Shown here piece after piece: positions 6,801-50,018 of a stretch of DNA of 64,000 nt. A program made the translations under genes and the position numbers. Source of the DNA: Phyllobates terribilis (Eukaryota); assembly GCF_046119375.1 (NCBI RefSeq), contig NW_027362762.1:341620001-341684000 (forward strand), in the 5' to 3' direction. The notes under the pieces are model-generated. The model saw only the letters and a list, made by a program, of their open reading frames with translations. It was not told where the DNA came from and did no database searches. How positions within the stretch are numbered: the stretch's first letter is position 1; each line of letters begins with the position of its first letter.

Positions 6801-8451
6801 CAGTCGCGCAACAGCTGTTGCAGCCAAAGTCACCATGTAGTCCCAGCCCTACTTTTACATACTTATTACGGTGCCCTATAGACCAATACTGTCTCATCAC
6901 AGGAGGATCACAAAATAATTGAAAGAGATCCAAAAGCGAAAAAAAGGTAACCCTATACACAAGAGTTTTCAATCTGTGATAAATACCTTATTGATACCTA
7001 TAATTACTAAAAAACATACATAAAAAGGAGTGTTTTTTTTTTCTTTCTCTGCATCACTTTTTACCACTTTTTATTATAGGTATCAATAAAATATTTATTA
7101 CAGATTGAAAATTCTTGTATTGAGGGTTACCTTTTTTCATTTTTGAATCTTATTATGGTGCCCTCTGATTATCTTTTGATTCATAATTAAAAGGAACCTG
7201 ACAGGTGATACATGTGGGCAGCATGTATCAGCCATTGGCTGTACGAACACAGCCACGTACAGTTAGTCTCTGTAACGCAGTCAGGGACCAAGCCGTACCA
7301 GTGACTAGTCATACAAGTGGGGCCCAGGGGCTTCTCTCTGACTGCTGACAGTGCGCGTATAGGCAGAAGACCACGGTGCCTGATTTAACGTACTCCTGCA
7401 CTGATTAAAAGCACTTCACCATCATATTATTAAACAGTACAGGTTTCTGCTAGTAGTGCAGGGGTTAATCTATTCAGTTGAGAGCTCCTGTAGCTTTCTT
7501 GCTTTGATGGTTTCAGCTGTTCAGTGTTGGCCACTCCACTCAGCTATATATACTCACCTCTTGCAATCAGTGATTGCCAGTGTTAGTTTCATACTGCCTG
7601 GTTCTGGAGTTGGAGGTGTTGGTTGTTTAAAGAAGCATTTGAAGTGTTGTTCTGAAGACTTTTGCTTGGCGATTTATCTGTGTGCATATCCTCATCCTCT
7701 CATATTTGGTTTTTCCTTCCTTCACTTCCTGGTGTTCCACTCTGTTGTTTGTGAGTGCATATTTGTATGATTGGAACTTTGATTTCTCCCTGTACATCTT
7801 CCCTTGTTAGTCTGGTTTGTGTATTCTTATACACTACTACTCCCTACTTTTCTGACTTGAACAGTGAACCGAACAGAATGGTATAACATTAATAGCATAT
7901 TAAATGCTAGGGATACTCCCAACTAGACACATCTCCTACAAATGAATGGAGTATAAATCCCACAAGACAAAAGAGTTACTAAAATATAAATTTTATTAAA
8001 TTGCAATATAAAAAGAAAAACACACACAATTTGCTTAAAACAGTAAATAGATCCCTTGGGGTAAGAATCACACGAAATCAGTTTGGCAAATAGATCTGGG
8101 TTCAGATGGTGTCATTCAAGAAATGTAAAAAATATATATAGAGACAGGCAATAAAGAAATATATATCGCGAGTCCTCAATCCACAGCAACAAAAATCTAT
8201 ATGTGTAGGATACCAAGGTCCAAACATATGAGAGAGGTAAGCCACAATATGCAAATTCTGTAATCAAAAAAGTACAATATAATTATATGTGGCTAAGAAC
8301 ATCATCCTCCTTCAAATGGAATGAAGGATAGTGTGAGCTGTACATAATAGACTACCCCATAAGGTTATGTGCCATAGAGTTAATACAGGTTATATGATGC
8401 AAACTCCTAAATGACTCACCCATCTGTGTAGTAGCCCCTATGCCGCACTGA

Positions 8452-8492
8452 AGCCCCGACGCGCGTTTCGCGTGTTGCTTCTTCTGGAGGCT
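8452..8492 (-). ncRNA. Minimal type I hammerhead ribozyme motif in the 3' pLTR
   Basis: AGCCUC-CAGAAGA-A-GC-AACAC-GC-GAAA-C-GCGC-GUC-GGGGCU: 6-bp stem I, 2-bp stem II, palindromic loop III, GUC triplet; core position 4 is A instead of U. Confidence 0.7.
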
Positions 8493-9179
8493 GTGATAGA
8501 GCGTGTGGATCGCCATTTTTAAATGCCCAGAATAATTAGGATGCCGGTGTCAATGCCGGTGTATGCAGCGCGTGCGAGAGTTACCGCCCCCCCGAGACGC
8601 GTCATATCCGGCCATTTCCTTTCGGGGCTGTGGGCCGGAACAATGCGTTCCAGTGACGTCAAAGGCCCACCTCCCCATCATACGGAAGCCTTGATGACGC
8701 GACGGGCCGGGGCGGGCCTGCGCACGCGCAGCTCAGCAGTAGACAACGTAAGAAGGGAATAACAACTGGGCAAGTATAATGATACATACAGGCCATACAC
8801 CCGATAACAATATATATAAGCACAACGTGGACACCCATTGTATGTGCCATCAAGACATACCAAAATGAAAATAGCCATCATAAGTTATCCGTCCAAAATA
8901 TTCTAATACCCACATCTCGTAATCAGAAGAATTTAAATAAAAATATATATCTTCAATGGGGCTTTTTAGTGTAGATCATATTATGTTGATGGTATCCAAG
9001 ATTCAACATGTAGGGAATTCATTTCATCCATACTAAGAAGGGTATGTCCAGATAAAGTTGAGATCAGTCCAATTATGGTCCAAGTATGTACCCAAAAAGC
9101 AAATATACTGAAAAAAACAATGAAACAAATAATAATTTAAAATCCACACATAAAAAGGGGAGAGAGAAAAAAGATCAAT

Positions 9180-12100
9180 CTACAAATAAGGAGCAAAACT
9201 ATTGAGCTCATTGAGACCCCTAGGGGTCACAGTGTCCAGGACAGCTATCCAGCGGCACTCCAGCTGCGCCAAAATACGCTTGTGGTCCCCACCCCGACTA
9301 CCGAGGTGTATCTGATCGATGCCTCTGAATTTGAGGCAAGAGGGGTCACAGTTGTGGCGCAGCTTGAAGTGCCGCGGGATAGTCTTCAGTAGCGCTAAAT
9401 CAGAGACCTCACGTGCCGCCAATATAGCTCGCACGTGTTCTCTCACTCGAACCCGAAATTCCCTAGATGTGAGCCCCACATAACTCAAATTGCAAGGACA
9501 TCGGGCCATATAAATAATATGCGTGGAGCTACAGGAAATATGACGGGTAATCTTAAAGTTCCGTACGCCATCCGTGGATGAAAATGTCATGGCCCTCTCT
9601 ATATTCCTGCAGGCCAAGCAGGAACCACACGGATAGCAACCCCACTTTGGTTTTCCAACTCCAAACAGAGTAGTTGAAGGGGCGACATAGTGGCTTCTTA
9701 CCAAAGAGTCTTTTAAACTTTTACCCCGCCTTGCTGTCATTAATGGTCTCTCAGGTAAGATTTGATTAAGTATCGGTTCCGTTTTTAATATGGGCCAGTG
9801 TCTAGATAGGATCTCACGTATTTCCCGCCACCGATTATTGTAGGTGGAAATAAATCTGATGGGAGAGTCTCTCTCCTCCTGTTTTTTTGTTGTATTTACT
9901 AGGAGGGAGACTCGTGGAGTCCTCCTTGCACGTCTGTAGCCCCTTTTGATACTTTGTGCACTGTATCCACGGTCCCGAAATCTATGGTTAAGGTCCCGAG
10001 CCTGAGCCTCAAAAGCCACCTCTGAAGAGCAAATACGTTTCATTCTTAGATATTGTCCTACAGGAATGGCCCGGATGGTAGATGAAGTATGTGCTGAAGT
10101 AGCATGCAACAGAGAGTTGACCGACGTCTCCTTACGGAAGACGTCGGTCTCCATCTTGCCATCCTGCTGGACAATGATCCTAATGTCCAAGAATTCAATT
10201 TCACTCCGATTGTACTTATATGTGAGTTTGATGTTCCGATCGTTATGATTTAAAGAGGAGATAAACTCATGTAGCTCAGGCTCGGGACCCTGCCAGATAG
10301 AAAAAATATCGTCAATGTATCTATACCAGCACTGCGCATGGGAGGCGGCGCCCACCCCATCCTCGAAAATCTCCCTCTCCCAATAGCCGAGGAAGAGATT
10401 AGCGTACGATGGGGCACACGCCGCGCCCATCGCAGTGCCGCGTTTCTGTAAAAAAAACCTATCTTTGAAAATGAAAAAATTATGAGTCAATATAAATTGT
10501 AATAATTCCATCAACAGTGCACAAAGTGGGGCATTTAAATCACTAGACTCCAGAAAGAACTCAACGGCTCGTAAGCCATCCTCATGACCTATGCTCGTAT
10601 AAAGTGACTCCACATCAATAGCCACCAGGGTCATATCCGTGTCCAAATGCAAACCCTCTATTTTTCTCAGGACGTCACCAGTGTCCCTGACATAGGAGGG
10701 CAGCGTCTCCACCAGTGGATGAAGATAGTATTCAATGAACTTACAAACTGGATCACACAGCCCTCCAATGCCAGAGACAATGGGACGCCCCGGGGGGTCC
10801 ATAAGGCTCTTATGGACCTTAGGTAGCAGATAAAATGTTGGGGTCACTGGAAATTTAGTGCATAGGCCATCAAAGATCTTTTTAGGAATAATACCCTGCT
10901 CATAAGCTCGTTCCAGAATGTCAAAGAGTTCAGCCATAAAGGTTGTTAATGGATTATTAGATAGAGAGATATAAGAGGCTCTATCCCGCAGTTGTCTAAA
11001 AGCCTCCTTCTCATATTTTGCGACTGGCCAGATCACAACGTTCCCTCCCTTGTCTGCCGGTTTAAATACCACGTCCCTCATAGATTGGAGTTCTCTGAGT
11101 GCTTTTCTCTGTTCTAATGTGGGGTTGTCATTCCTCAAGTGTCCACAGAGTTTTCTAAGGTCATTACTCACCATTTTATTAAAAATTTCAATCTGGGGAC
11201 AAAGAGAGAAGGGAGGGAAAGTGGTAGATCTGGCCAGGGCAGTAATGGGAAAAGTACCTGAGGAGGCCGGAGTACTCTCTCTCTCCAATTCTTCCAATAT
11301 GGATAAAGCCTCTCTCTCTTGGGTCGTATCCAGCAACTGACATGTTGGTTTGGTGTGTAATTTGCGTAATAGCACCTTCCTGAGGAAAAGTTGTAAATCC
11401 TTTAGTGCTGAAAAAAAATTATAATTATTAGTCGGAACAAAGGTTAAACCCAATGACAGTACTTCATTTTGGCTTTCTGAGAGGGTATGAGCAGAGAGAT
11501 TAATTACCTCTAAATTGTTAGTTCTCAATTTTTTCTCCAGAGGTTGTGGGGGGGTTGTTTTCCTTTTAGAGTTATGTTTCCCCTTCCACTGACCATGGTA
11601 CGCACTGCTACTCCCAGCCTGCATTCCCTTTGGTGCTTCTTCCTCCATAGATGATAAGGAGGAGATTGAATTCCACCGATTCCCCGGCCTTGTCTTATTG
11701 TGAGTTTTTCTACCTCTCCATCTGTAGACCTGTTTTTGTTTAAAGTCTGCAAGATCTCTTTGGTACTTCTTGGTTTTGGAAGCCACTATGTCTTTTTCCC
11801 ATTTCACAAATTCCCTGTCAAGATCCTGATTAAATTGATTTAGGGCTTCAGGGGTTAACTTGGTGGATAGTGAGTCCTGGAGTTGAGTAATCTCCAACTC
11901 AATGCTATGTAGGGACTGTTCATTAGATCTAATTAGAAGTTCCATGTGCCCTTTAGAACAGGTAGATGAAATGTCCTCCCATTGTTGTTCCAATGAGACA
12001 TCTTGAAACTCAAATGCCGGAAAAACCTGAACACGAAGACCCCTAGGGATCAGTCCTTTAGCAATGTAGAGCTCCAAAAAGGCCTTATTCCACCAAAGGC

Positions 12101-12851
12101 GGATCTTTTTATTGTGTAGGTCTTTTAGTTTAAAAATCAAATCATCACTCTCCCTTGTATTTAAAATCACAGTGGATTCCTCCCCAAAGACCTTATTTAG
12201 TTGGGTGAGCCAGGTCTGCTCACGCTTTTTGTGATCCATGTGTTCGGACCCAGATGCTGTGAAAAGACACAGAATTAACCAGACTTGAACAGTGAACCGA
12301 ACAGAATGGTATAACATTAATAGCATATTAAATGCTAGGGATACTCCCAACTAGACACATCTCCTACAAATGAATGGAGTATAAATCCCACAAGACAAAA
12401 GAGTTACTAAAATATAAATTTTATTAAATTGCAATATAAAAAGAAAAACACACACAATTTGCTTAAAACAGTAAATAGATCCCTTGGGGTAAGAATCACA
12501 CGAAATCAGTTTGGCAAATAGATCTGGGTTCAGATGGTGTCATTCAAGAAATGTAAAAAATATATATAGAGACAGGCACTAAAGAAATATATATCGCGAG
12601 TCCTCAATCCACAGCAACAAAAATCTATATGTGTAGGATACCAAGGTCCAAACATATGAGAGAGGTAAGCCACAATATGCAAATTCTGTAATCAAAAAAG
12701 TACAATATAATTATATGTGGCTAAGAACATCATCCTCCTTCAAATGGAATGAAGGATAGTGTGAGCTGTACATAATAGACTACCCCATAAGGTTATGTGC
12801 CATAGAGTTAATACAGGTTATATGATGCAAACTCCTAAATGACTCACCCAT
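9180..12851 (-). CDS. Penelope-like RT + GIY-YIG endonuclease ORF; predicted exon 1 at 12851-12848, intron 12847-12257, exon 2 at 12256-9180
   Basis: 1056-aa open frame 9180-12350 with DKGGNVVIW, LPKVHK...GRPIVS, DVESLYTSI, GTAMGAACAPSYANLF, YIDD, a Cys-rich linker (CYPCGSCLAC), IIY...YVG...R..EH and a terminal GLN. ATG-G/GTGAGT donor and TTTTCACAG acceptor join in frame to give MASGSEHMDHKK. Confidence 0.9.
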
Positions 12852-12879
12852 CTGTGTAGTAGCCCCTATGCCGCACTGA

Positions 12880-12920
12880 AGCCCCGACGCGCGTTTCGCG
12901 TGTTGCTTCTTCTGGAGGCT
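12880..12920 (-). ncRNA. Minimal hammerhead ribozyme motif in the 5' pLTR
   Basis: Identical to 8452-8492; predicted cleavage at 12886, 35 nt upstream of the predicted ATG at 12851. Confidence 0.7.
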
Positions 12921-12928
12921 GTGATAGA

Positions 12929-14825
12929 GGACGTGGTATTTAAACCGGCAGACAAGGGAGGGAACGTTGTGATCTGGCCAGTCGCAAAATATGAGAAGGA
13001 GGCTTTTAGACAACTGCGGGATAGAGCCTCTTATATCTCTCTATCTAATAATCCATTAACAACCTTTATGGCTGAACTCTTTGACATTCTGGAACGAGCT
13101 TATGAGCAGGGTATTATTCCTAAAAAGATCTTTGATGGCCTATGCACTAAATTTCCAGTGACCCCAACATTTTATCTGCTACCTAAGGTCCATAAGAGCC
13201 TTATGGACCCCCCGGGGCGTCCCATTGTCTCTGGCATTGGAGGGCTGTGTGATCCAGTTTGTAAGTTCATTGAATACTATCTTCATCCACTGGTGGAGAC
13301 GCTGCCCTCCTATGTCAGGGACACTGGTGACGTCCTGAGAAAAATAGAGGGTTTGCATTTGGACACGGATATGACCCTGGTGGCTATTGATGTGGAGTCA
13401 CTTTATACGAGCATAGGTCATGAGGATGGCTTACGAGCCGTTGAGTTCTTTCAGGAGTCTAGTGATTTAAATGCCCCACTTCGTGCACTGTTGATGGAAT
13501 TATTACAATTTATATTGACTCATAATTTTTTCATTTTCAAAGATAGTTTTTTTTTACAGAAACGCGGCACTGCGATGGGCGCGGCGTGTGCCCCATCGTA
13601 CGCTAATCTCTTCCTCGGCTATTGGGAGAGGGAGATTTTCGAGGATGGGGTGGGCGCCGCCTCCCATGCGCAGTGCTGGTATAGATACATTGACGATATT
13701 TTTTCTATCTGGCAGGGTCCCGAGCCTGAGCTACATGAGTTTATCTCCTCTTTAAATCATAACGATCGGAACATCAAACTCACATATAAGTACAATCGGA
13801 GTGAAATTGAATTCTTGGACATTAGGATCATTGTCCAGCAGGATGGCAGGATGGAGACCGACGTCTTCCGTAAGGAGACGTCGGTCAACTCTCTGTTTCA
13901 TGCTACTTCAGCACATACTTCATCTACCATCCGGGCCATTCCTGTAGGACAATATCTAAGAATGAAACGTATTTGCTCTTCAGAGGTGGCTTTTGAGGCT
14001 CAGGCTCGGGACCTTAACCATAGATTTCGGGACCGTGGATACAGTGCACGAAGTATCAAAAGGGGCTACAGACGTGCAAGGAGGACTCCACGAGTCTCCC
14101 TCCTAGTAAATACAACAAAAAAACAGGAGGAGAGAGACTCTCCCATCAGATTTATTTCCACCTACAATAATCGGTGGCAGGAAATACGTGAGATCCTATC
14201 TAGACACTGGCCCATATTAAAAACGGAACCGATACTTAATCAAATCTTACCTGAGAGACCATTAATGACAGCAAGGCGGGGTAAAAGTTTAAAAGACTCT
14301 TTGGTAAGAAGCCACTATGTCGCCCCTTCAACTACTCTGTTTGGAGTTGGAAAACCAAAGTGGGGTTGCTATCCGTGTGGTTCCTGCTTGGCCTGCAGGA
14401 ATATAGAGAGGGCCATGACATTTTCATCCACAGATGGCGTACGGAACTTTAAGATTACCCGTCATATTTCCTGTAGCTCCACGCATATTATTTATATGGC
14501 CCGATGTCCTTGCAATTTGAGTTATGTGGGGCTCACATCTAGGGAATTTCGGGTTCGAGTGAGAGAACACATGCGAGCTATATTGGCAGCACGTGAGGTC
14601 TCTGATTTAGCGCTACTGAAGACTATCCCGCGGCACTTCAAGCTGCGCCACAACTGTGACCCCTCTTGCCTCAAATTCAGAGGCATCGATCAGATACACC
14701 TCGGTAGTCGGGGTGGGGACCACAAGCGTATTTTGGCGCAGCTGGAGTGCCGCTGGATAGCTGTCCTGGACACTGTGACCCCTAGGGGTCTCAATGAGCT
14801 CAATAGTTTTGCTCCTTATTTGTAG
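12929..14825 (+). pseudogene. 5'-truncated inverted copy of the Penelope-like ORF (RT C-terminal part + GIY-YIG)
   Basis: Open frame matches the 1056-aa protein from DVVFKPADKGG onward with 8 amino-acid differences; the annotated start at 12900 lies in pLTR sequence across the inversion junction. Confidence 0.9.
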
Positions 14826-15274
14826 ATTGATCTTTTTTCTCTCTCCCCTTTTTATGTGTGGATTTTAAATTATTATTTGTTTCATTGTTTTTTTCAGTAT
14901 ATTTGCTTTTTGGGTACATACTTGGACCATAATTGGACTGATCTCAACTTTATCTGGACATACCCTTCTTAGTATGGATGAAATGAATTCCCTACATGTT
15001 GAATCTTGGATACCATCAACATAATATGATCTACACTAAAAAGCCCCATTGAAGATATATATTTTTATTTAAATTCTTCTGATTACGAGATGTGGGTATT
15101 AGAATATTTTGGACGGATAACTTATGATGGCTATTTTCATTTTGGTATGTCTTGATGGCACATACAATGGGTGTCCACGTTGTGCTTATATATATTGTTA
15201 TCGGGTGTATGGCCTGTATGTATCATTATACTTGCCCAGTTGTTATTCCCTTCTTACGTTGTCTACTGCTGAGC

Positions 15275-15494
15275 TGCGCGTGCGCAGGCCCGCCCCGGCC
15301 CGTCGCGTCATCAAGGCTTCCGTATGATGGGGAGGTGGGCCTTTGACGTCACTGGAACGCATTTTTCCGGCCCACAGCCCCGACAGGAAATGGCCGGATA
15401 TGACGCGTCTCGGGGGGGCGGTAACTCTCGCACGCGCTGCATACACCGGCATTGACACCGGCATCCTAATTATTCTGGGCATTTAAAAATGGCG
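15275..15494 (+). promoter_or_regulatory. CpG-rich putative PLE promoter (mirror copy on the minus strand at about 8511-8730)
   Basis: NRF1-like TGCGCGTGCGCA (15275), GC box, CRE TGACGTCA (15344), ETS-like GGAAAT, and ATTTAAAAATGGCG (TATA-like plus YY1-like) just upstream of the hammerhead and ATG. Confidence 0.5.
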
Positions 15495-15512
15495 ATCCAC
15501 ACGCTCTATCAC

Positions 15513-15553
15513 AGCCTCCAGAAGAAGCAACACGCGAAACGCGCGTCGGGGCT
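15513..15553 (+). ncRNA. Minimal hammerhead ribozyme motif in the inverted-arm pLTR
   Basis: Exact reverse complement of 8452-8492; GUC ends at 15547. Confidence 0.7.
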
Positions 15554-17741
15554 TCAGTGCGGCATAGGGGCTACTACACAGATGGGTGAGTCATTTAGGA
15601 GTTTGCATCATATAACCTGTATTAACTCTATGGCACATAACCTTATGGGGTAGTCTATTATGTACAGCTCACACTATCCTTCATTCCATTTGAAGGAGGA
15701 TGATGTTCTTAGCCACATATAATTATATTGTACTTTTTTGATTACAGAATTTGCATATTGTGGCTTACCTCTCTCATATGTTTGGACCTTGGTATCCTAC
15801 ACATATAGATTTTTGTTGCTGTGGATTGAGGACTCGCGATATATATTTCTTTAGTGCCTGTCTCTATATATATTTTTTACATTTCTTGAATGACACCATC
15901 TGAACCCAGATCTATTTGCCAAACTGATTTCGTGTGATTCTTACCCCAAGGGATCTATTTACTGTTTTAAGCAAATTGTGTGTGTTTTTCTTTTTATATT
16001 GCAATTTAATAAAATTTATATTTTAGTAACTCTTTTGTCTTGTGGGATTTATACTCCATTCATTTGTAGGAGATGTCCCTACTTTCCTGGCCTGGGTGGG
16101 GGAGGGGACAGATAAGGGCTGATTTAGGAGCTCAGCAAGGCACAAAGCCCTGATGTCTTCCCCATTAGAAGTAATCTGAAGAGCAGGGATAGCTAGGACA
16201 CCCCTAACTTTAGGCATAGGGAAGGAGCCCCTAGCCCTGGGATATCAAACAACAGTGCAGTGACAAGACGCTTGTCAGTCACTGTCAGAAGGCGGGGGGG
16301 AGGAGCCGGCGGTTGACCCACCTGTACAACTAGTCACTTATGCGGCTTGGTCTCCAGCGGCTATCAAAAGTATACCGTTCTCTGAAACACTGCAATGGTT
16401 CAGAATCAAACATACCTGCATGTGATTGTACAGCCAGTGGCTGATACATGCTGCCCACAGTTTGGGCAGCATCTGTCACCTGTCAGATTCCCTTTGAACA
16501 GTAACTCTAATATGTTCAGTGCTGGTGGTCACAAGTGCTCAGATGCTCAGTCAGTCCACCAGGATCCTCTTGTACACAGAGGGCTGAATGATTCCTCCTA
16601 CGGGGTAGATTAGACAAGGTGAATTAGTGCACAAGAAGCGGCTTCTTTTTGCAAAACTACATTTTTTCTAATCTAAAGAAAGATACTTTTGATAACATTA
16701 TGCATAAAAAAACTTCTACATAAAAATGATCCTATAGGGTATTGCTGCAGAAGAAAGATATAATAATATGCAGAAAACAGATTTACGTGACTATGCTCTT
16801 CTACCTATTCAACGTAATTGTAATTTTCTAATTATAGAAGAACGTGTTGATGTGACTGAGGGCAGAAATTTGCTTAAGCTTGGAGAAAAGTAAATAAATA
16901 AGTATACCCATTAAACTGATCATTAACGCAGAGTGTAAATTAAAAATCAATATCATTATTTTTAATGGCAGTCATTTCTGTAACACCGAAAAAAACTTGC
17001 TGATGAACTAGTAGAAGACCAAAACACTTAGCTTATTACTCCATAATTGGCCTCTTCTAGGCTGCTGGTTTCCACCACCTAGAGATTTACACATGGTGGA
17101 GATAATTTTGCCATGATCACTGTTCCACTCAACTGCAAAAGCTATTCATTATTCAGCATGAAGTAATTGTGGGTTAGCGAGAAGCCAATAACTCCAGAAA
17201 TATCGCATTACGGTCACGTTATTTAATAGGTTTACTATTTAGAAAATACTGCATATCTAATTGTAGTGTACAAGGAAATGACATCTAAGGTGACCTAGAT
17301 TGTATTTTCTTCCCACGGGCTCAGATCCAATTTATTGATAATTTTTATAGGATACAGTGTTACATATACTGTAGTATGAAATATCAAGTGATGCTGAGAA
17401 AACTACAATGATATTGTTGTATTATTTCTTAGTTCATAGCAACATACTGTAGACTTGCACAGTTTGAGTATAATATAATCTGATAAAAAGAAAGATAATC
17501 TTCATTTAAGCAAAAGGGAGAGGGGCATGTAAATAAAACTGATTTTCAGCCATATTGTGGCTAAACCATGCCTGCTATGTGTGCCTATTGGTTTCAAGTT
17601 CAATATCGGTCATTTATTTCTACTACAGCTGTATAAAACTGGGACAATATAACCAGTGATTCGGAAGGCAAAGACAGGCCTTATTCAGATGTCTATTTTT
17701 CACATACATGTTCTGTCTGTATTGTTCACGGTAAGAACACA

Positions 17742-20431: not shown

Positions 20432-20962
20432 TATATAAGGTGGGCACCATCAAAGATCAGGGTCAGACGCAGAGAGGAAGTCAGATGCAGAGGACAAGCC
20501 TGCAGCAAGAGAGAGAAAGAAACAACAGCCCTGGAGAGAGAGTGGAGTGCAGAAAGACCCAGAGGGGGACAAAGAAGGGACCCAAGAACCCAAATAAGAA
20601 CACCGGGTGAGGAGTCAGCAGAAGGGTACCGGAACCCAAGCTGGTGGGGGCAAAGACATTCCCCAGCCAGAGACCGGAGACCGTGGGCAGTGTCTGTCAC
20701 GGTCACCCACTACATTCACCCTGAAGGCACACCACATGGAGGGTCAGGGAACCTTAGGCCAAAGGTTGCCCAACAGAAGGCCCGAGGGAGCTGGATTTAG
20801 GTGAATCACTGGTGGGGACGGCTGAAGAAAGGACAGAGGGAGAGCTCAGGGCCACGCTCCGGACTTGTTTGGGGGTTGGCTGGATCCAGGACCTGGTGGA
20901 CGCAGCACGGCTCGGGAGGTCACTTGGAGCTAGAGTGACCAGGAACATCTGCAGTAAGTAAA
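20432..20962 (+). promoter_or_regulatory. LTR TATA box (20432-20438) and AGTAAA polyA-signal variant (20957-20962)
   Basis: TATATAA and AGTAAAGACCC both occur in the related solo LTR at 17742-18744. Confidence 0.55.
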
Positions 20963-21336
20963 GACCCTTAACTGCACAACCCGAGTCTGTCATCATTACC
21001 GGCTGCACCGCACCACCACAACCCCCATCCTCTGCGCCTGTCCCCTCTGAGGCTATACCCCTCCCGTTGGGGGTTATCCCACCAAGCTGTGCACCCACCA
21101 TCAGCCTCAGCGGACCCTGCAGCAGCGGCGGCCACAGTGACCGCATCACAACGGGTGGCGTAGTCGACACAACGAACTTTAATAACATCAGTAAGGACTG
21201 CCACATAACACTGAGCTTGACGCCCTGGGCACGGGACCGGGTCACAGCCGCTCGGAGACTACAACCCCCCCCCCATCTGATCCGGTGCCGGGTATTCCCC
21301 TCAAAAAGGAATATGTCCCAGGGGGCGCGTCAACTT

Positions 21337-21355
21337 TGGCGTAGTCGGCAGGATT
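21337..21355 (+). promoter_or_regulatory. Primer-binding site complementary to the tRNA-Ser 3' end
   Basis: TGGCGTAGTCGGCAGGATT, 4 nt after the 5' LTR; reverse complement of the vertebrate tRNA-Ser end AAUCCUGCCGACUACGCCA (recalled sequence). Confidence 0.9.
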
Positions 21356-21591
21356 ACGTGCCCGCAACACCCGGGTACTGCGTGCCTGAAGAAAAGTGCA
21401 AGTTTACCTCAGAAAGAAGTCTCCCGCCGGTTCCGGAGGGTCCACGCCATCGGACTCCATCACCAGTCGTTTCCCGCCGATTGTCCGCCATTTCCAGCTT
21501 GTTCCCGCCATCTGCAGAGTTTCCCGCCACTGGGAAGCGATTCCCGCCAAAACCGCAGATTTCCCGCCCTGGAAGAGCAGCGGACGCCATT

Positions 21592-23367
21592 ATGGGCGTG
21601 CCAAAGGAGAGCAAGAGGCTACCTCCCATCGTGGGCCGGGACAGAAAATGGCGCCAAAAGTGGAAACCGCCCCCACCAACAGAGACTGTGATGCTGGAGG
21701 TGTCTGTCAGCGTGAAAGAACTCCCCCTGGAGCTGACAGTCACCGAGTTGCCCCGGGACCGCCCTCGAAGTAGGAGGAGACGAAAGAAAAGAGAAAAGAT
21801 GGGTGTCGCTTGGAGCAGTCTAGAACGAGCGCACCCGGAGGCAAGGTGTCTAGAGCGAGAGCACCCGGAGTCGAGGAGAGAAAGAGTAGACCCGGGAATG
21901 GAGCGGCAGCAGAGCAGCACCGGCCCGCTGGCCAGGAGCCTGCTGGAGGAAGAAGGAGGAGAGCAGAGCAGCACCGACCCGATGGTCAGGAGCCTGCTGG
22001 AGTCAACAACCCCGCTAGGCTTAGCGGAGATCCTGGCGCAGCTTCCCCGAGACCGGGAGTGCGCGCGGAGTGCCCTGGAGGGCCTCGCGGGAAGGATGGC
22101 CCGAGTGCAGAGGGAGATCCTGGCGGAGTGGGGCCGGGAGATGGCCCAGCAAGCTGGAACCCGTCCACGGAGCCCGCTCCCTTGGAAGAAGACATCGACT
22201 GCCTCTGCGGATGACGCGGGAGGACCCAAGGCCGGAGACGGCGCAGAAGAGGGAGCGAGACGCATGGCAGCGGGTAAGGGGGACGCCTATACCCCATACC
22301 GGAAGACCGCTTACCTGCCCCAGCTCCCCGTCGCAGAGCCCGAAGGTCCCCCGGCCGTACCCGAGACCGCCATGACACCGCCACCGACTAGGCCCCGACC
22401 GGAAGCCGCCGTCGCGACCCCGGTGACGTCACGCGTCGTGACCCGGAGCGTGGCGAAGGAGGAGGAGCCTCCGGCCTGGTCGCAGGGCCTAGCGTTTCCG
22501 GGCGCCGCATCCCCAGCAGAGCCATCTACCTCCGCGGAGCCTCCGGCCTGGTCGCAAGGCCAGGTAGCCCAGGGCGCCGCCGTCCTAACAGTTCCATTTA
22601 CCTTCCAGATGCCCCCGGCCTGGCCGCAAGGCCTGGGCAACCTGGGTGCCCCCACCATCGCGCCCGCACCCGCAACACCAAGGGTGCCATATCTGGGAGA
22701 GGACCCCTTCAGCCAGCTAACGTGGCCGGACGGGCGGCCTTTCATCTGGCCCAAAGAATTCTTGGAACTGGAGCGACAAAAGAAGTTGGGGCCCTTGTGT
22801 GAGCCCCTAATCCCGGCTCCGAAGCCCGTGACTCGGGTCTCGCCTCCACTCGAGGAAGCCCAGTTCGTGTGGGACCCCACGGGAGAAGATTTGATGGGGT
22901 TCACCGGAGAGACTCGGGCAGCTGCAGCAGAGCGTACCGAGTGTTGCCGTCAACAGCTGGCAGAGTTCAAGAGAGAGCGGGAGGAGAGGCGGGCCAGAGA
23001 GCAATGGGCCCAGACCCGCAGCGCGGAGCAAAAGAGTCGGACCAGAAGGAACCCCCGTGCAGCAGATCGTCCCCGTACCATCGGGACGGTAATAAAGTTT
23101 AATGCGCAGCATGGGTGGGGCTTCATAAGGGACCGGAACACCATGGGTGACGTCTTCGTTACTCGACGGGACGTCGAGTCCCACCTTCCAGAGGGTCACA
23201 AAGGCCGTGACCTCTACGTCGGTGACGAGGTAACGTTCACCCGGCACAAGTGTGCCAAGGGACCTTATGCCCTCCACGTGCACCGCCTGACGGAGGAGGA
23301 GTTGCGGTGTAGGGAGGAGGAGCCAGAAGACCCGGACGGGTTCAAGGCTAGAAGGTACTATGACTGA
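21592..23367 (+). CDS. 591-aa protein: basic, proline-rich and coiled-coil low-complexity regions with a C-terminal cold-shock domain (about 23080-23290)
   Basis: ATG 21592 has A at -3 and G at +4; the frame is open from 21067 (another in-frame ATG at 21313). CSD: GTVIKFNAQHGWGFI (RNP1), DVFVT (RNP2), LYVGDEVTF, KGPYALHV. Confidence 0.85.
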   Translation: MGVPKESKRLPPIVGRDRKWRQKWKPPPPTETVMLEVSVSVKELPLELTVTELPRDRPRSRRRRKKREKMGVAWSSLERAHPEARCLEREHPESRRERVDPGMERQQSSTGPLARSLLEEEGGEQSSTDPMVRSLLESTTPLGLAEILAQLPRDRECARSALEGLAGRMARVQREILAEWGREMAQQAGTRPRSPLPWKKTSTASADDAGGPKAGDGAEEGARRMAAGKGDAYTPYRKTAYLPQLPVAEPEGPPAVPETAMTPPPTRPRPEAAVATPVTSRVVTRSVAKEEEPPAWSQGLAFPGAASPAEPSTSAEPPAWSQGQVAQGAAVLTVPFTFQMPPAWPQGLGNLGAPTIAPAPATPRVPYLGEDPFSQLTWPDGRPFIWPKEFLELERQKKLGPLCEPLIPAPKPVTRVSPPLEEAQFVWDPTGEDLMGFTGETRAAAAERTECCRQQLAEFKREREERRAREQWAQTRSAEQKSRTRRNPRAADRPRTIGTVIKFNAQHGWGFIRDRNTMGDVFVTRRDVESHLPEGHKGRDLYVGDEVTFTRHKCAKGPYALHVHRLTEEELRCREEEPEDPDGFKARRYYD

Positions 23368-23827: not shown

Positions 23828-26237
23828 TGTAGCACCCTGAGGATTCGGCTGCTACAGGGGTATTGCACCTCAACCCAGAGGTGTGATATTCCACTCCCGG
23901 GTAAGGATGGAGTGTGGATCTGAGCTCAGATAGACTGCATGCACTACATACATCCCATTCCAGAGGAGCAGGCCGACGGTACTCCCACTTAGAAATGTGC
24001 AGGTACAACCGAGCCTGTTCCTGGCTGGAGTGGGAGGGGGGTGGTACATCCCATGTAGTGTAGGGGCAGAAAGGGGGAGCAGTCTGGGTAGTGATAGGAG
24101 CTCATTGGGTGCTGGTCACCTGAGCTCACACATAGAGGGTGTATATAAGGTGGGCACCATCAAAGATCAGGGTCAGACGCAGAGAGGAAGTCAGATGCAG
24201 AGGACAAGCCTGCAGCAAGAGAGAGAAAGAAACAACAGCCCTGGAGAGAGAGTGGAGTGCAGAAAGACCCAGAGGGGGACAAAGAAGGGACCCAAGAACC
24301 CAAATAAGAACACCGGGTGAGGAGTCAGCAGAAGGGTACCGGAACCCAAGCTGGTGGGGGCAAAGACATTCCCCAGCCAGAGACCGGAGACCGTGGGCAG
24401 TGTCTGTCACGGTCACCCACTACATTCACCCTGAAGGCACACCACATGGAGGGTCAGGGAACCTTAGGCCAAAGGTTGCCCAACAGAAGGCCCGAGGGAG
24501 CTGGATTTAGGTGAATCACTGGTGGGGACGGCTGAAGAAAGGACAGAGGGAGAGCTCAGGGCCACGCTCCGGACTTGTTTGGGGGTTGGCTGGATCCAGG
24601 ACCTGGTGGACGCAGCACGGCTCGGGAGGTCACTTGGAGCTAGAGTGACCAGGAACATCTGCAGTAAGTAAAGACCCTTAACTGCACAACCCGAGTCTGT
24701 CATCATTACCGGCTGCACCGCACCACCACAACCCCCATCCTCTGCGCCTGTCCCCTCTGAGGCTATACCCCTCCCGTTGGGGGTTATCCCACCAAGCTGT
24801 GCACCCACCATCAGCCTCAGCGGACCCTGCAGCAGCGGCGGCCACAGTGACCGCATCACAACGGGTGGCGTAGTCGACACAACGAACTTTAATAACATCA
24901 GTAAGGACTGCCACATAACACTGAGCTTGACGCCCTGGGCACGGGACCGGGTCACAGCCGCTCGGAGACTACAACCCCCCCCCCATCTGATCCGGTGCCG
25001 GGTATTCCCCTCAAAAAGGAATATGTCCCAGGGGGCGCGTCACTGGGAGTTGTTGTTGCTATCAGTCTTTATCAGATTGCGGACCATACAGGAGCCACAG
25101 CACTGATGAGACACAGGCAGGATCCCAAATAAAATTTGACAATCCAGGTATCTTACAAGTGACATCTTCCGTGATTGGAGTCGTTCTCTTTCTCTTCGTC
25201 TCCATCTTGTCTAGACACCATGTTGACTTCTATCCACAGATCGTCTCTACCGACTTCCATCCTGTCGGGTTTTCTTCAACACATCCTGCCATGATGCCCT
25301 TAAAAAATAAGAGTGTTATTAAACTATTATTAAAAACATCTGTCTATACTCTGCCCTAAATAAGCCTCTTATTGTATATGGCCTCCACACTCTCTGCCCT
25401 TATGAGATATAAACCCACCACAGTGATTAGTGACTGTGCTTACAGCTCCATGCTCATGTGTGGATGAGAAATATGATCCTACACCAACCAGACAGCATGG
25501 AGCTCAGGCATCATAGTCACTAAACTACTGATTCTAATCAGTAACTCCTGCAGAAGCTGGCAGGCAGCAATTTGCATTCTCGGCAATCCTCATCTTTACT
25601 GAAGAGTCCCTGGGTCCCTATGTGCAGACGCCGCTCAGCATAGGCTGGAGGAGGGGAGCTGAAGGTTGTAAGTGGCTGAGGAGAGGACGAGCGGGAGGAG
25701 GAGCAGCCTGCATGCATGGCCTTGAGGCCGGCGTGTCAACGCTGTGGAGCTACAGCGCGTGGCACTGGTTTTGAATTTGAACCGAGGCACAGGCTCGTCA
25801 GCGACTGACATCGCTCACCACAGTGCCTGTGCCCCGGCTGTCGGGGTGCTGAATGCTTGCGGCCAGAAGAAGGTGCCTGGTGGTGGGAGGAAGTTGCCTG
25901 GCGGCCACAGGCATTCAGCAATGTCAGTTTGTTTTTTGTTTTTTTTTACACTGCACCCCCCTCAGGGAGGCAAGAGTTAGTGCCCTAGGCAGGTGCCTTC
26001 CCTGGCGGCGTACCCCTCATCTCGACCCTGCTAAGGGATATAACGCAAGGCACAAAGTCTGAATGGCAGCCCTATGGTTCTGCATCATCAAGTTGTGGGT
26101 ATTTTGTAAGCAGTGTATTATGGCCTCATAAACTTCTATGGGTGCCATAAGAAGAATCTGTACAGTACAGAGCCCATAGCCATAAAGGCACATACAAACA
26201 ACATCACTGCCCACTTTGCTTGATTTTTAACATGATA

Positions 26238-30140: not shown

Positions 30141-31822
30141 TGTTAGAACCCTCCTGTTTGTTTTTGTTTCTATCTTGTGTTTTGCAGTCACGTGATCATC
30201 TTCCTATATATTCCAGCTCCGCCCTTCTGGCTTTGCTGGACTTCAGTGTTGTTTTGACTGTCTCTCTAGCCAGGTGCTTTTGTGCCTATCTATCTCTAGT
30301 TTGCTTGGTCCTCTGGGACCTCTAGTACTTTTTGTCAGTTTATCTTTTGCTCTGCAGCAACTTCTGTTAGGAGGTGTCCCATTTTTGTCTCAGTCCTTAG
30401 TTCCTTTAGGGACCCCTCCCTTTCTCTATAGGTCTCCGTTAAGACTAGCCGAGGACGAAGGCGGGTCTGTTCACAAGGAACAGGTAGCCCGCTACAACGT
30501 AGGGGCTCAGCTTAGTCTTACTGTAGGGACAGCTCTCCCCTTCTTTCCCAAGCCTATGTTGCAGATCATAACAGTAAGTCCAGCCCAAACAAAAACTTTA
30601 AGGAAAGAAATCCGGGGATCAGTATGGTTTCTGTTCAAGATTTGGCTCAACGCCTGCAGGGATGGTCTCTGGAGGTGTCCGAGCTCCGGCAACAGGTGAG
30701 TAGCTGTTCTGTAGCGCATTTTGTGGAACCGAAGGTAGGACTGCCTGATATTTTTTATGGTAAACAACAAGATTTTTTTTCCTTTAAAATTGCTTGTTTT
30801 TTATATTTTCGTTTGAGACCAAGGTCCTCTGGGAATGAATCTCAGCGCATTGGGTTTATCATGTCACTTTTGCGCAAGGAACCACAGGGGTGGGCCTTTT
30901 ATCTCCAACCTAATGATCCGTGTTTTAGGTCAGTGGAGGATTTTTTTTCTGCTATGGGGCTATTGTACGACGATCCTGATCGAGTCTCATCTGCTGAGAC
31001 AGAACTGAGGCGTTTGAATCAGGGGTCAGGTGATGTTGAAAATTATTGTACACACTTCAGAAGGTGGTCCTCAGAAGTGAAATTGAATGATTCGGCGTTA
31101 AAATGTTTCTTTCTTGCTGGCCTAAGTGAAAGGGTTAAGGATCTGCTTATTGCATTCCCTGCACCTGAGACCTTGCAGGAAGCCATGCAATTAGCTATAC
31201 GTGTGGACAGGAGACTGCGTGCCTGGGTTAATTATGAAAAAATTCCTGCAATGGCAGCTCTTAGTCCCCAGAGGGTCTGCTCGGATGGCGGAGAACCGAT
31301 GGAGGTTGAGGCGATGTCACTCCGCTCTCAGGAAAGAGACCGCAGGTTTTCCAAGGGATTGTGTTTTTATTGTGGTAAACCTGACCATTTGATTAAGAAC
31401 TGTGAGCTTCGTTTAAGTAAAGAAAAAAAAAAGGTCAGTTACGCCCGTATTGCTTGTTTGAGCTCTAAGGGAGTATTTCTTTCAGGGAGTACCTCATTGC
31501 GAGAAGATTTGATTGAATTTCGGGTATTTGTGGATTACTCACAAGGTTGCGGCATTTCCCCTCACTATCAATGGTACTTTTTGTCAGTTTATCTTTTGCT
31601 CTGCAGCAACTTCTGTTAGGAGGTGTCCCATTTTTGTCCCAGTCCTTAGTTTCTTTAGGGACCCCTCCCTTTCTCTATAGGTCTCCGTTCAGACTAGCCA
31701 AGGACGAAGGCGGGTCTGTTCACAAGGAACAGGTAGCCCGCTACAACGTAGGGGCTCAGTTTAGTCTTACTGTAGGGACAGCTCTCCCCTTCTTTTCTTA
31801 GCCTATGTTGCAGATCATAACA
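30141..31822 (+). mobile_element. Internally deleted sushi-type Gypsy element: 5' LTR 30141-30573, gag, partial 3' LTR 31574-31822
   Basis: TGTTAG...ATAACA LTR; 31574-31822 repeats 30324-30573 with roughly 3 percent differences; pol absent; TSD not found. Confidence 0.85.
30624..31619 (+). CDS. gag: Sushi-type Gag with CCHC zinc knuckle, fused to LTR sequence after the deletion
   Basis: LPDIFYG, LNQGSGDVENYCTHFRRW, EPMEV, CFYCGKPDHLIKNC (31362-31403); VFVD marks the truncated protease start. Confidence 0.8.
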   Translation: MVSVQDLAQRLQGWSLEVSELRQQVSSCSVAHFVEPKVGLPDIFYGKQQDFFSFKIACFLYFRLRPRSSGNESQRIGFIMSLLRKEPQGWAFYLQPNDPCFRSVEDFFSAMGLLYDDPDRVSSAETELRRLNQGSGDVENYCTHFRRWSSEVKLNDSALKCFFLAGLSERVKDLLIAFPAPETLQEAMQLAIRVDRRLRAWVNYEKIPAMAALSPQRVCSDGGEPMEVEAMSLRSQERDRRFSKGLCFYCGKPDHLIKNCELRLSKEKKKVSYARIACLSSKGVFLSGSTSLREDLIEFRVFVDYSQGCGISPHYQWYFLSVYLLLCSNFC

Positions 31823-32124: not shown

Positions 32125-34037
32125 ATAATAATATAATAATAATAATAGTTAATTTTTATAGCGCCAACATATTCCGCAGCACTTTACAAATTTTAGGGGG
32201 GACTTATACAGACAATACAGAATAAGCATATCTCATATCGAAAGGAGTGAGGGCCCTGCTCGCGAGCTTACAGTCTATGAGGAAGTGGGGGAGACACAAA
32301 AGGTAAAAAGTACATATATTGTATAATGCAGCCTTGATATACTGAATAGGATAAATAATAATACATGAACTGGTCGCCAGCCAGTATGTGTGCAGTCCTG
32401 ACAGAGGCTTTTATGTGCATGGTTGGTTTGAACCCGAAGTTGAAGAAGATTTTAATATGGGGGAAACCTGGGATGGACACAGTGTGTTTAGGTGATACGC
32501 CAGTCTAAAGAAATGTGTTTTTAGGGTTCGCTTGAAACTGTGGGTATTGGGAATTAATCGAACTGTCCTGGGTAGTGCATTCCAGAGAATTGGCGCAGCA
32601 CGCGAGAAATCTTGGAGACGGGAGTGGGAAGTTCGGATTATGGAGGATTTTAGTTTCAAGTCATTTGCAGAACGCAGGGCACGTGTAGGGTGGTAGACTG
32701 AGACGAGGGAGGAGATGTAGGGGGGTACTGAAGCATGGAGCGCTTTGTGGGTACGCGTGATAAGTTTAAAATGAACTCTATATTGGATGGGCAACCAATG
32801 CAATGACTGGCACAGGGAAGAGGCATCTGAGTAGCGGTTGGCGAGGAATATGATCCTGGCTGCTGCGTTCAGGACGGATTGGAGAGGGGAGAGTTTAGTA
32901 AGAGGGAGACCGATTAGTAGAGCGTTGCAATAGTCAAGACGAGAATGAATAAGAGCTACAGTAAGAGTTTTTGCCGAGTCAAAGGTGAGAAAAGTCCTGA
33001 TTCTTGAGATGTTTTTGAGGTGTAGATGACATGAACGAGCGAGTGATTTGATGTGAGGAGTGAAGGAAAGATCTGAATCAAAAATGACCCCAAGACAGCG
33101 GGCTTGTTGCTGGGGAGCAATGGTGGAGCCACAAACAGAAATGGCAATATCGGGCACAGGTAGGTTAGTGGAGGGAGGAAAGACGAGTAGTTCAGTTTTT
33201 GACAGATTCAGTTTTAGGTAGAGGGAGGACATAGTGTTAGACACAGCAGAAAGACAATCACTGGTCTTTTGTAATAATGCAGGGGTGATGTCCGGAGCAG
33301 AGGTGTATAATTGGGTGTCATCAGCATAGAGATGGTACTGAAAACCGAATCTACTGATTGTTTGTCCAATAGGAGCAGTGTATAAGGAGAAAAGAAGGGG
33401 GCCTAGGACTGATCCTTGAGGAACCCCGACAGTAAGAGGAAGTAGGGAGGAGGAGGAGCCGGCGAAAGACACAGAGAAGGAGCGGTCAGAGAGATAGGAG
33501 GAGAACCAGGAGAGAACAGTGTCCTTGAGGCCGATAGAGCGGAGCATAATGAGGAGGAGCTGGTGATCCACAGTGTCGAATGCTGCAGAGAGATCCAGGA
33601 GAATCAGCAGGGAGCAGTGACCATTAGATTTAGCTGTTAGCAGATCATTAGAGACTTTAGTGAGGGCAGTTTCAGTAGAATGTAAAGAGCGGAAACCAGA
33701 TTGTAAAGGGTCAAGAAGAGAGTTGTCTGAGAGATAGCGGATTAGACGGGAATGGACCAGGCGTTCCAGGAGTTTAGAGATAAAGGGAAGATTGGAAACA
33801 GGTCTGTAGTTGGCCGTGCAGTTCTGGTCGAGGGATGGTTTTTTAAGTAATGGTTGTATGCTGGCGTGTTTAAAAGAAGAGGGAAAGATACCAGATGAGA
33901 GGGAAAGGTTGAAAATTTTAGTTAGGTGAGTGGTGACAGCTGGAGCAAGGGACTGAAGGAGATGTGAGGGAATAGGATCGCTGGTGCAGGTGGTAGGGCG
34001 AGAAGATGCAAGGCTTCTGGCAGAAGGACACATCCCT
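32125..34037 (-). mobile_element. 5'-truncated L2-clade LINE with an open 540-aa RT segment (32411-34033)
   Basis: [46 protein letters not shown]; (TAA)n-type tail at about 32125-32150. Confidence 0.92.
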
Positions 34038-35603: not shown

Positions 35604-37164
35604 CACCGCGTGCAGAATTATTAGGCAAATGAGTATTTTGATCACATGATATTTTTTATACATGTTGTCCTACTCCAAGCTGCATAGGCTTGAGAACCAA
35701 CTACCAATTAAGTAAATCTGGTGATGTGCATCTCTGTAATGAGGAGGGGTGTTGACTAATGACATCAACACCCTATATAAGGTGTGCTTAATTATTAGGC
35801 AACTTCCTTTCCTTTGGCAAAATGGGTCAGAAGAGAGATTTGATGGGCTCTGAAAAGTCCAAAATTGTGAGATGTCTTGCAAAGGGCTGCAGCAGTCTTG
35901 AAATTTCCAAACTTTTGAAGCGTGATCACCGAACAATCAAGCGTTTCATGGCAAACAGACAACAGGGTCGCAAGAAGCGTGTTGGCCAAAAAGGCGCAAA
36001 ATAACTGCCCATGAATTGAGGAAAATCAAGCGTGATGTTGCCAAGATGCCATTCGCCACCAGTTTTGCCATATTTCAGAGCTGCAACGTTACTGGAGTAT
36101 CAAAAAGCACAAGGTGTGCGATACTCAGGGACATGGCCAAGGTAAGGAAGGCTGAAAAACGACCATCTTTGAATAAGAAACATAAGATAAAACGTCAAAA
36201 ATGGGACAAGAAATATCTTAAGACTGATTTTTCAAAGGTTTTATGGACTGATGAAATGAGAGTGACTCTTGATGGGCCAGATGGATGGGCCAGAGGCTGG
36301 ATCAGTAAAGGGCAGAGAGCTCCACTCCGACTTAGACGCCAGCAAGGTGGAGGTGGGGTACTAGTATGGGCTGGTATAATCAAAGATGAACTTGTGGGAC
36401 CTTTTCGGGTTGAGGATGGAGTGAAGCTCAACTCCCAGACCTACTGCCAGCTTCTGGAAGACAACTTCTTCAAGCAGTGGTACAAGAAGAAGTCGGTATC
36501 ATTCAAGAAAAACACGATTTTCATGCAGGACAATGCTCCATCACATGCATCCAACTAGTCCACAGCGTGGCTGGCCAGTAAAGGTCTAAAAGAAGAAAAA
36601 ATAATGACATGGCCCCCTTGTTCACCTGATCTGAACCCCATAGAGAACCTGTGGTCCATCATAAAATGTGAGATCTACAGGGAGGGAAAACACTACACCT
36701 CTCGGAACAGTGTCTGGGAGGCTGTGGTGGCTGCTGCACGCAATGTTGATTGAAAACAGATCAAGCAACTGACAGAATCTATGGATGGAAGGCTGTTGAG
36801 TGTCATCGTAAAGAAAGGTGGCTATATTCATCAAAAAATTTTTTTGTTTTTGTTTTTGCATGTCAGAAATGTTTATTTCTAAATTTCGTGCACTGATATT
36901 GGTTTGCCTGGTGAAAATAAACAAGTGAGATGGGATTATATTTGGTTTCCATTAAGTTGCCTAATAATTCTGCACAGTAATAGTTACCTGCACAAACAGA
37001 TATCCTCCTAAGATAGCCAAATCGAAAAAAAGCTCACTACAACTTCCAAAAATATTAAGCTTGGATATTTATGAGTCTTTTGGGTTGATTGAGAACATAG
37101 TTGTTGATCAAAAATAAAAATAATCCTCTAAAATACAATTTGCCTAATAATTCTGCACACAGTG
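35604..37164 (+). mobile_element. Full-length DD37E (TRT-type) Tc1-like transposon, inactivated
   Basis: TA flanks; TIR CAC(C/T)G(C/T)GTGCAGAATTATTAGGCAA; transposase from ATG 35822 to about 36835 with a frameshift near 36000 and stops at 36556 and about 36750; 37 residues between QDN-Asp and PIEN-Glu. Confidence 0.9.
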
Positions 37165-49143: not shown

Positions 49144-49447
49144 GTAAGACAGGACAGAGATAAATCGCCGAAGCGGTAAACAAAGACAAAGCAAAGGGGA
49201 CAGGGCTCTGTTCACATGGAACAGACTGGAAAAGAAAGGCAGAACCAGATACACACAAGGTACTTGCAAACAAGTAGCGAAAGGACTCCAACTCACAAAC
49301 GGAAGTACAATGACAACGAGTAGAAGTTAGGTGCAGGTTCAGATTCTACAGAAAAAGGGAGCAAACGGACATAAAGACAAAACAGATAAGAAGCTAGGAG
49401 ACAGTTCAGACAAGAACAGTTACTGCAACAAAATGCAAGAAGGAGCC

Positions 49448-50000
49448 CCCCGAGGAAGCAGCACGCGAAACGCGCATCGGGGCTTCAACGCGACATCGGA
49501 GTATACATTGCACATGGGTGAGCCACCTTATTTGTTGAAGACACCATTATGACTGTCTCACACATATATGAGAATGACTGGAACAGTTACTGAATCTGTA
49601 TACCTGTAGATTCCATCCATTTCTTGGATTTCTCTGATCATACACACTGCCATTTGGGTATACTATTTATGTATGTTCCCTTCATGTGACTGGTTGCATT
49701 TATACCAGAGTGCAACCTTTATTTCTATGCTATCAGATGATCTCATGTGCACTCCTATATAGAATTGTCGCATTGTATTTGTGTTTTCCATCCCCGGTGA
49801 CCTACTAAATTGTTATGAGTATATTGATTTTAATATTTATACTGAATAAAATTTGTCTTTTTAATATTATTCAATATTGTTCTATATTTCTTTTCTTGGG
49901 GGTCATACTTCATATATTTCTATAGGCTATGCATTTCAGTAGGAGTACCCTGTGTATATAATATGGTATTCTTTCATATGGTTCGGTTCAATTGTATTTA
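49448..50000 (+). mobile_element. Solo pLTR of a second Penelope-like family, with a hammerhead-like motif
   Basis: 18-bp TSD AAAATGCAAGAAGGAGCC (49430-49447, 50001-50018); CCGAGGA-AGC-AGCAC-GCGAAACGCGCATCGGGGCT; ATGG/GTGAG donor; GTTCGGTTCA near the 3' end, as in 7854-16075. Confidence 0.75.
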
Positions 50001-50018
50001 AAAATGCAAGAAGGAGCC

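Follow-up and report, generated by a model that had tools for sequence, protein, structure and literature searches.

Can a hammerhead ribozyme that lacks the uridine at position 4 of its core still cut? This U4 counts as an invariant base of the core, and search descriptors include it as such. The question is raised by a 64,000-nt stretch of the genome of the frog Phyllobates terribilis (contig NW_027362762.1; hereafter the window), in which a Penelope-like element (PLE) carries, in its pseudo-long terminal repeats (pLTRs), three copies of a minimal type I hammerhead with A at this position (A4; core CAGAAGA). Comparison of the genomic copies of this element and its relatives makes it likely, to our judgement, that the A4 hammerhead of this young element still cleaves at its GUC site, probably slowly and incompletely.

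A generic type I hammerhead scan of both strands of the window, with position 4 left free, matched these three motifs and nothing else, and the coordinates, stems, extra A and palindrome listed in a preliminary description of this DNA stood as given (Table 1). The motif is 41 nt long, identical in sequence in all three copies, and consists of a 6-bp stem I (including one G-U pair), the core CAGAAGA with an extra A after A9, a 2-bp stem II with a 5-nt loop, GAAA, an 8-nt palindrome running from A15.1 to U16.1, and C17. The three stems can form around the core, and the C3-G8 pair, G5, A6, A9, G12, A13, A14, A15.1-U16.1 and H17 are all present; position 4, U in the canonical core, is A in all three. 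The Rfam model RF00163 (Hammerhead_1) matched each motif with 23.6 bits, below the gathering score of 34.

Minimal hammerheads in the pLTRs of metazoan PLEs were described by Cervera and de la Pena in 2014, who proposed that they act as dimers (PMC4209133; this and the other papers cited enter the comparison through excerpts). The frog motif shares with them the type I topology, the location in both pLTRs, the extra base between A9 and G10.1, the G10.1-C11.1 pair and the palindromic 15.2-16.2 pair and stem/loop III. By contrast, the consensus given there is CUGANGAH, with U4 in every row of Fig. S3 examined; the frog core CAGAAGA-A does not fit it, and frog relatives have C or G at position 4. 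In addition, stem II has 1–2 bp in many frog families, as opposed to 4–8 bp in most of the 2014 families. Small PLE hammerhead variants that cleave as dimers have also been reported (Lunse, Weinberg and Breaker, RNA Biol 14:1499, as summarised in PMC6765202); the short palindromic stem III and the association with PLEs are common to those variants and to ours. As for position 4 itself, Perreault et al. (2011) reported one natural viroid with U4C, whose activity was low in vitro yet sufficient in vivo, and discarded repeat-borne core mutants by rule (PMC3088659); U4A and U4G do not appear in the available passages of that paper. Likewise, the available parts of the literature, including PMC6765202, PMC6155905, PMC11014351 and bioRxiv 10.64898/2026.07.22.740005, report no natural U4A hammerhead or position-4-free family, although the Lunse paper (2017) could already note one.

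The three motifs are one insertion and not three independent cases, because they lie on the arms of a single inverted structure that are 99.5% alike, with a repeat period of 4,428. As claimed in the preliminary description, C17 at 12886 and C17 at 8458 are 4,428 nt apart and an ATG lies 35 nt past the cut; this ATG is, however, followed by a predicted 591-nt intron. Removal of the intron would join the frame into a protein of 1,026 aa, with a YRYIDD motif, a CYPCGSCLAC zinc linker and, in its C-terminus, a GIY-YIG-like motif. The RVT_1 profile scores 28.8 bits on this protein, just short of the cut-off of 29.6, and the C-terminal motif is without a Pfam match, PF01541 being found on several relatives. 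The closest proteins are from dendrobatid and other frogs. Assembled RNA contigs from four runs contained no join across the intron and no end pile-ups, which is evidence neither way. Neptune elements are recognized by a CX2-5CxxC zinc linker after the reverse transcriptase (RT) domain (PMC8557442). The window element has such a linker, together with a tandem/inverted pLTR structure with fixed tail ends, and we classify it as a young Neptune-type, putatively endonuclease-containing (EN+) PLE, a clade name that is given by the linker criterion only. The full unit in the window starts at -44 relative to the cut, below a TATA-like box at -66, and may therefore lack a promoter of its own.

The A4 core was found in 31 of 31 motif instances, at all 30 loci recovered from the 40 best DNA matches; being fixed in the family, A4 is, as judged from these copies, not a product of decay. 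Position 4 was then counted genome-wide. Across its 10.6 Gb, the genome has 6,598 matches to the 14-mer that makes up the 3' half of the motif (2 to the reversed control), and the core pattern Y-N-G-W-N-R-A-A-G precedes it in 5,489 copies. Of these intact-core copies, 3,587 have U at position 4, 862 have C, 524 have G (an overestimate, many rows being 9-nt cores with an inserted G) and 516 have A, all controls giving 0. About 35% of the copies are thus without U4, whereas the viroid U4C is a single rare case. The textbook CUGANGA is present in only 23 of the first 100 U4 rows (hand count), which extrapolates to about 15% of the 5,489. Intact open reading frames (ORFs) also accompany C4 (1,055 aa, copy L120) and G4 (1,025 aa, copy L147), with repeats 99% alike. 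The suggestion that position 4 may be tolerant in this lineage is therefore borne out more broadly than it was made, as all four bases occur, and the second PLE family cited in its favor, with core CCGAGGA, does have a real motif at 49444-49484. In a midpoint-rooted tree of 54 C-terminal fragments (206 columns), A4 needs two changes, both forced by well-supported branches, and C4 needs five; on this tree A4 arose at least twice. The window family falls among C4 families, so that the change termed U4A in the preliminary description, correct as regards the A, was probably C4A historically, and it is a single instance of a broader freeing of position 4 across the lineage. In families with a 10-nt loop III palindrome (copies L176-L180), some copies have C4 and others A4, which may represent a third origin of A4. 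A scan of metagenomes with the compact motif gave no match.

Release of position 4 is not accompanied by a loss of constraint on the remaining core. The first 100 of the 6,598 3'-half sites formed 64 groups by downstream flank, which we parsed by stems alone, without reference to core letters. Fourteen groups that parsed poorly on structure alone, their cores being 5'-truncated, decayed or expanded by an inserted base, were left out and one 9-nt core was set aside, leaving 49 clusters, a few of them visibly mis-registered. In these, position 4 is U in 30, C in 8, G in 6 and A in 5, and position 7 is free; G5 is found in 48, A9 in 49, the extra base A in 48 and G10.1 in 49, while position 6 is A in 42 and U in 7. 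The 3-8 pair is U-A in 34 clusters, C-G in 11, U-G in 3 and A-A in 1, with a mutual information of 0.56 that was reached in 0 of 1,000 shuffles, a significance that the shuffles overstate because the clusters are related. The swap to U3-A8 is described in PMC4209133. Of most relevance here, the 19 clusters without U4 keep a Watson-Crick 3-8 pair in 17 cases and G5 in 18. Covariation among family copies, which the preliminary description had named in its refuting condition, is absent within the family, where it is uninformative since the copies are near-identical, but it is present across families, both at the 3-8 pair and in stem I: with the register fixed by the core, 126 of 156 stem I pairs are Watson-Crick, compared with a mean of 90 and a maximum of 109 after shuffling. 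A converse search, anchored on the 5' half with the 3' half unconstrained, yielded 3,284 matches (control, 3); among the 100 listed, G12 is kept in 92, A13 in 100 and A14 in 98 (hand count), and the 8 rows without G12 are all G-to-A changes at CpG.

Some copies depart from the core in other ways. Two separate groups (L061, L062, L123 and L137; L101, L107 and L138), as well as many rows of the G4 count, have an apparent 9-nt core in which an additional G separates positions 4 and 5 (UAGGAAAA-A and CUGGACGA-A), the register being ambiguous in some copies. A further group (L063, L064, L102, L105, L111 and L118) combines U6 and U3-A8 with G4, C4 or U4 (UGGUUAA, UCGUCAA, UGGUAAA), that is, up to four departures from the textbook core, and some of its members lie in tandem arrays. 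In L076, L098, L112 and L132, stem II is a single G-C pair closing a loop of 4–6 nt, and stem I has 5–7 bp.

Indirect evidence of cleavage comes from the 5' ends of the copies. A downstream anchor retrieved 213 copies of the A4 and C4 clade, and 5' ends were determined by hand for the first 100: 6 lie exactly at +1, the first nucleotide past the predicted cut, 4 at +4, 3 between -1 and -27, and 21 at -28 to -44. The predicted cut site thus coincides with 5' ends of genomic copies, and the excess at +1 over the neighbouring rate has a Poisson p of about 2e-7. Within the A4 family, as defined by downstream sequence, 3 of 34 copies start at +1 (L216, L218 and L248; p < 1e-3) and 11 in the -28 to -44 interval; of the other +1 starts, one is from a C4 family (L217) and two have no intact partner in the set. 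A 14-bp target duplication abuts +1 in L217, and L216 has a 15-bp target duplication plus 4 nt. When the whole genome was filtered for foreign sequence preceding +1, five matches remained, two of them further C4-family copies, one with a 1–2-base ambiguity; none of the five keeps C17 with foreign sequence upstream. Decay of C17 to T was considered as the cause of the +1 starts and rejected, given that about 3 intact copies are affected and that no junction keeps C17 with foreign sequence upstream. The four copies that start at +4 (L244, L257, L273 and L278) are possibly trimmed cut-site ends or stops within stem I. In a canonical CUGA clade, 4 of 72 copies (drawn from about 600 matches) start at +1, one start is ambiguous and 10 lie near the start; the cut-to-start ratio does not differ between the two clades (Fisher p 0.7–1.0), a comparison with little power and of ratios that are not rates, as cut ends may stem from either ribozyme and integrate differently. 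The upstream peak, at -35 to -38, lies about 29 nt below the TATA-like box and is likely the transcription start. For comparison, the available passages of PMC4209133 offer no genomic or in vivo evidence of cutting, whereas some frog copies start at the cut.

Could the +1 ends be RT stops at a structure, the A4 core being catalytically negligible and the fold being kept as a dimerisation, packaging or protein-binding signal? The 8-nt palindrome is indeed invariant across families whose proteins are only 32–60% alike, most 5'-complete copies carry an uncut motif, and known U4 mutants are poor ribozymes in the available data (PMC9901934, PMC3088659). Templates may also be brought together in pairs: in a two-template test on inverted arms most arm differences were private, but the youngest copies share one non-CpG site, 2428, at which the arms differ in two loci, fitting two templates. 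A polymerase moving upstream would, however, meet stem I at +6 and stem III at -2, not at +1, and 0 of 5 filter matches keep C17 with foreign sequence before it. Moreover, the tertiary 3-8 pair, G5 and G12, which are important for catalysis, are kept in families without U4. We consequently regard a purely non-catalytic signal as unlikely.

The 3' ends show which RNA is copied. In the window and 26 family loci they fall, within the intron, into two clusters, +518 to +537 and +598 to +610 relative to the cut; inverted pairs typically have one end from each cluster, a few ends are shorter, and none of these loci has a 3' end at the cut site. Since the copies extend 518–610 nt past the downstream ribozyme, the RNA template of the long copies was, on this evidence, continuous across it, either uncut or re-ligated. 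The doubly cut 4,428-nt unit RNA expected in the preliminary description is therefore not supported as the insertion template. A more elaborate form of that proposal, in which both ribozymes cut and the released 4,428-nt unit is circularised and copied into tandem units by rolling reverse transcription, has been published (PMC4209133). It accommodates the existence of cut-site ends and of arrays of several units, and it would also allow RT to initiate at +529 or +604 and pass over the junction. From a doubly cut linear unit, only stubs of about 600 nt could arise. On the other hand, 21 of 100 copies begin at about -37, where a circle offers no 5' end. In addition, at site 298 two separate insertions both have C upstream and A downstream in successive units, an order that, for this one site, fits a multimeric template from a tandem donor better than a monomer circle. 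Release of a circle is accordingly improbable as the route to these copies. Entries L205-L210 (four contigs) and C500 represent one insertion, with identical junctions on several contigs, and reflect segmental duplication or uncollapsed haplotypes. The C4 stub of a sister family in the window runs from the putative start of transcription as far as the second site of RT initiation; its 18-bp target duplication (49430-49447 / 50001-50018) overlaps stem I by 4 bases.

A similar situation has been described for the green anole Poseidon element PAc (Frangieh et al. 2024, PMC11167929), in which RT starts internally, the ribozyme is protein-assisted and uncut RNA is the main template. Its two fixed internal RT start sites define the copy ends, a pattern that the two 3'-end clusters in the frog match. 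The anole element is from another clade, its ribozyme overlaps the start codon, a tail of 30–40 nt is cited for it, compared with about 75 nt between the frog end clusters, and it has no reads at the cut site, whereas frog genomic copies start there.

Several results weigh against cleavage by the A4 core. The first are from folding. As a monomer, the motif prefers a competing hairpin, the hammerhead fold having a probability of about 7e-6 (the folding z-score of -0.49 is not counted as support). For two bare 41-mers, the double hammerhead is the minimum-energy state (-28.7 kcal/mol), but 343 of 500 shuffles gain as much from dimerisation. Once native flanks are included, the structure lies 7–26 kcal/mol above the optimum, and only 12–15 of 50 clusters have it as their best fold. 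Action as a dimer through palindromic loop III, as initially proposed, is plausible only for the isolated motif. The RNA alone would probably cut poorly, which would be consistent with a protein-assisted ribozyme as in PMC11167929. In that same study, as far as the excerpt goes, the ribozyme was dispensable in vitro and no RNA reads ended at the cut. In the canonical hammerhead, mutants of the CUGA region have low activity except for the 3-8 swap (Roberts 2023, PMC9901934, in the part available). The relaxation of position 6 could mean a general loss of constraint. Finally, the events are few, with three A4 copies at +1 and four further copies at +4, and a copy with its 5' end at +1 no longer contains its own core, which means that the cutter could be the core of another family.

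This last point leads to the proposal that families without U4 are cheaters that depend on a canonical core from another family to cut their RNA in trans, by way of the palindrome and similar stem I strands. In the double hammerhead the core of one copy cuts the other copy, and A4 heterodimers with CUGA or UUGA motifs (stems I of 5–6 bp, stem III of 8 bp) are, at -28 to -29 kcal/mol, as stable as the A4 homodimer, which leaves room for cutting in trans. The heterodimer is not, however, the optimum fold for CUGA partners, and pairing is expected to be easier between two copies carried by the same tandem transcript than between RNAs from separate families. A pure substrate, furthermore, would need neither the 3-8 pair (17 of 19) nor G5 (18 of 19) that non-U4 cores keep. 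All considered, trans cutting as the full explanation is very unlikely. Lastly, a decayed relic or chance look-alike, to which the score below the Rfam gathering threshold and the monomer z-score might point, is scarcely credible and largely refuted: the family is young, has an intact ORF and carries the A4 motif at each of the 30 loci, and there are thousands of covarying relatives, with controls of 0–3.

Cleavage by the A4 ribozyme would fit into the life cycle of the element as follows. Transcription would start 2–3 nt before stem I, the ribozyme forming the first 40 nt of the RNA, and self-cleavage would strip a capped leader of about 37 nt from a minority of transcripts. For the active fold, pairing with a second copy through the palindrome and the assistance of a protein are likely required. 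Reverse transcription would begin at two fixed sites in the retained intron and run to the 5' end of the RNA, wherever that lies, and a full-length copy would need the downstream ribozyme to be uncut or re-joined. Fast cleavage would therefore be costly to the element and a slow ribozyme tolerated or favored, and U4 would thereby be freed. We extend this more tentatively, at somewhat less than an even chance, to the frog Neptune elements at large: they may hold a large overlooked class of hammerheads that can do without U4 (whatever the base, an inserted G included, and in some cases with U6) and that cut in living cells as often as canonical cores; incomplete cleavage would be selected for since copying must cross the ribozyme, the 5' ends of copies would record the cut and uncut RNA pools, and CUGANGA descriptors would miss roughly 85% of the class.

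Table 1. Positions of the hammerhead motifs and associated features in the window
Feature	Position	Strand	Remarks
Minimal type I hammerhead motif, A at position 4	12880..12920	-	Upstream pLTR of full unit; C17 = 12886
Hammerhead motif, identical copy	8452..8492	-	Downstream pLTR of full unit; C17 = 8458
Hammerhead motif, identical copy	15513..15553	+	Inverted arm; predicted cut between 15547 and 15548
PLE insertion, arm 1	7854..12929	-	1.15 units; one end at -44 relative to first cut site, the other at +604 relative to second
PLE insertion, arm 2	12929..16076	+	Inverted, 5'-truncated, from mid-RT to +529 past its own cut site
Left target-site duplication	7842..7853	.	12 bp, one mismatch with right copy
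Right target-site duplication	16077..16088	.	
ATG plus one base, predicted coding exon 1	12848..12851	-	35 nt past cut site
Predicted GT-AG intron, 591 nt	12257..12847	-	Retained in genomic copies; contains both 3'-end clusters (+529, +604)
Exon 2 ORF, uninterrupted	9180..12256	-	RT (YRYIDD), CxxCxxCxxC linker, C-terminal GIY-YIG-like region
TATA-like box at -66	15482..15489	+	About 29 nt above 5'-end cluster -35 to -38; putative promoter
TATA-like box, twin	8516-8523	-	None before the 12880-12920 copy
Sister-family C4 stub, motif CCGAGGA with G16.2-to-A	motif 49444..49484	+	Stub of about 555 nt, ends near 50000

The window contains other mobile sequences. An ORF of 766 aa (21067-23367) ends in what we take, by eye, to be a cold-shock-like domain; with its repeated neighbours (20754-21245 and 24464-24955) it is probably another mobile element. 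Transposon remnants, recognized by eye in the ORF list, lie at 30624-31619, 32411-34033, 36016-36558, 47248-48027 and 53508-56077, and include gag-like and pol-like LTR (long terminal repeat) pieces, a LINE-type RT and Tc1-like transposases.

If thousands of natural copies do cut without U4, the core rules for small dimeric or protein-assisted hammerheads would have to be revised, and the descriptor used may partly account for reports of elements without a hammerhead. The natural series of cores found in these frog elements (U, C, A or G at position 4; C-G or U-A at 3-8; A or U at position 6) provides a ready test set. Copies that start at the cut, set beside the class that begins at the transcription start, would moreover give a readout of cutting from the genome only, one that is relevant to the role of the ribozyme in PLEs.

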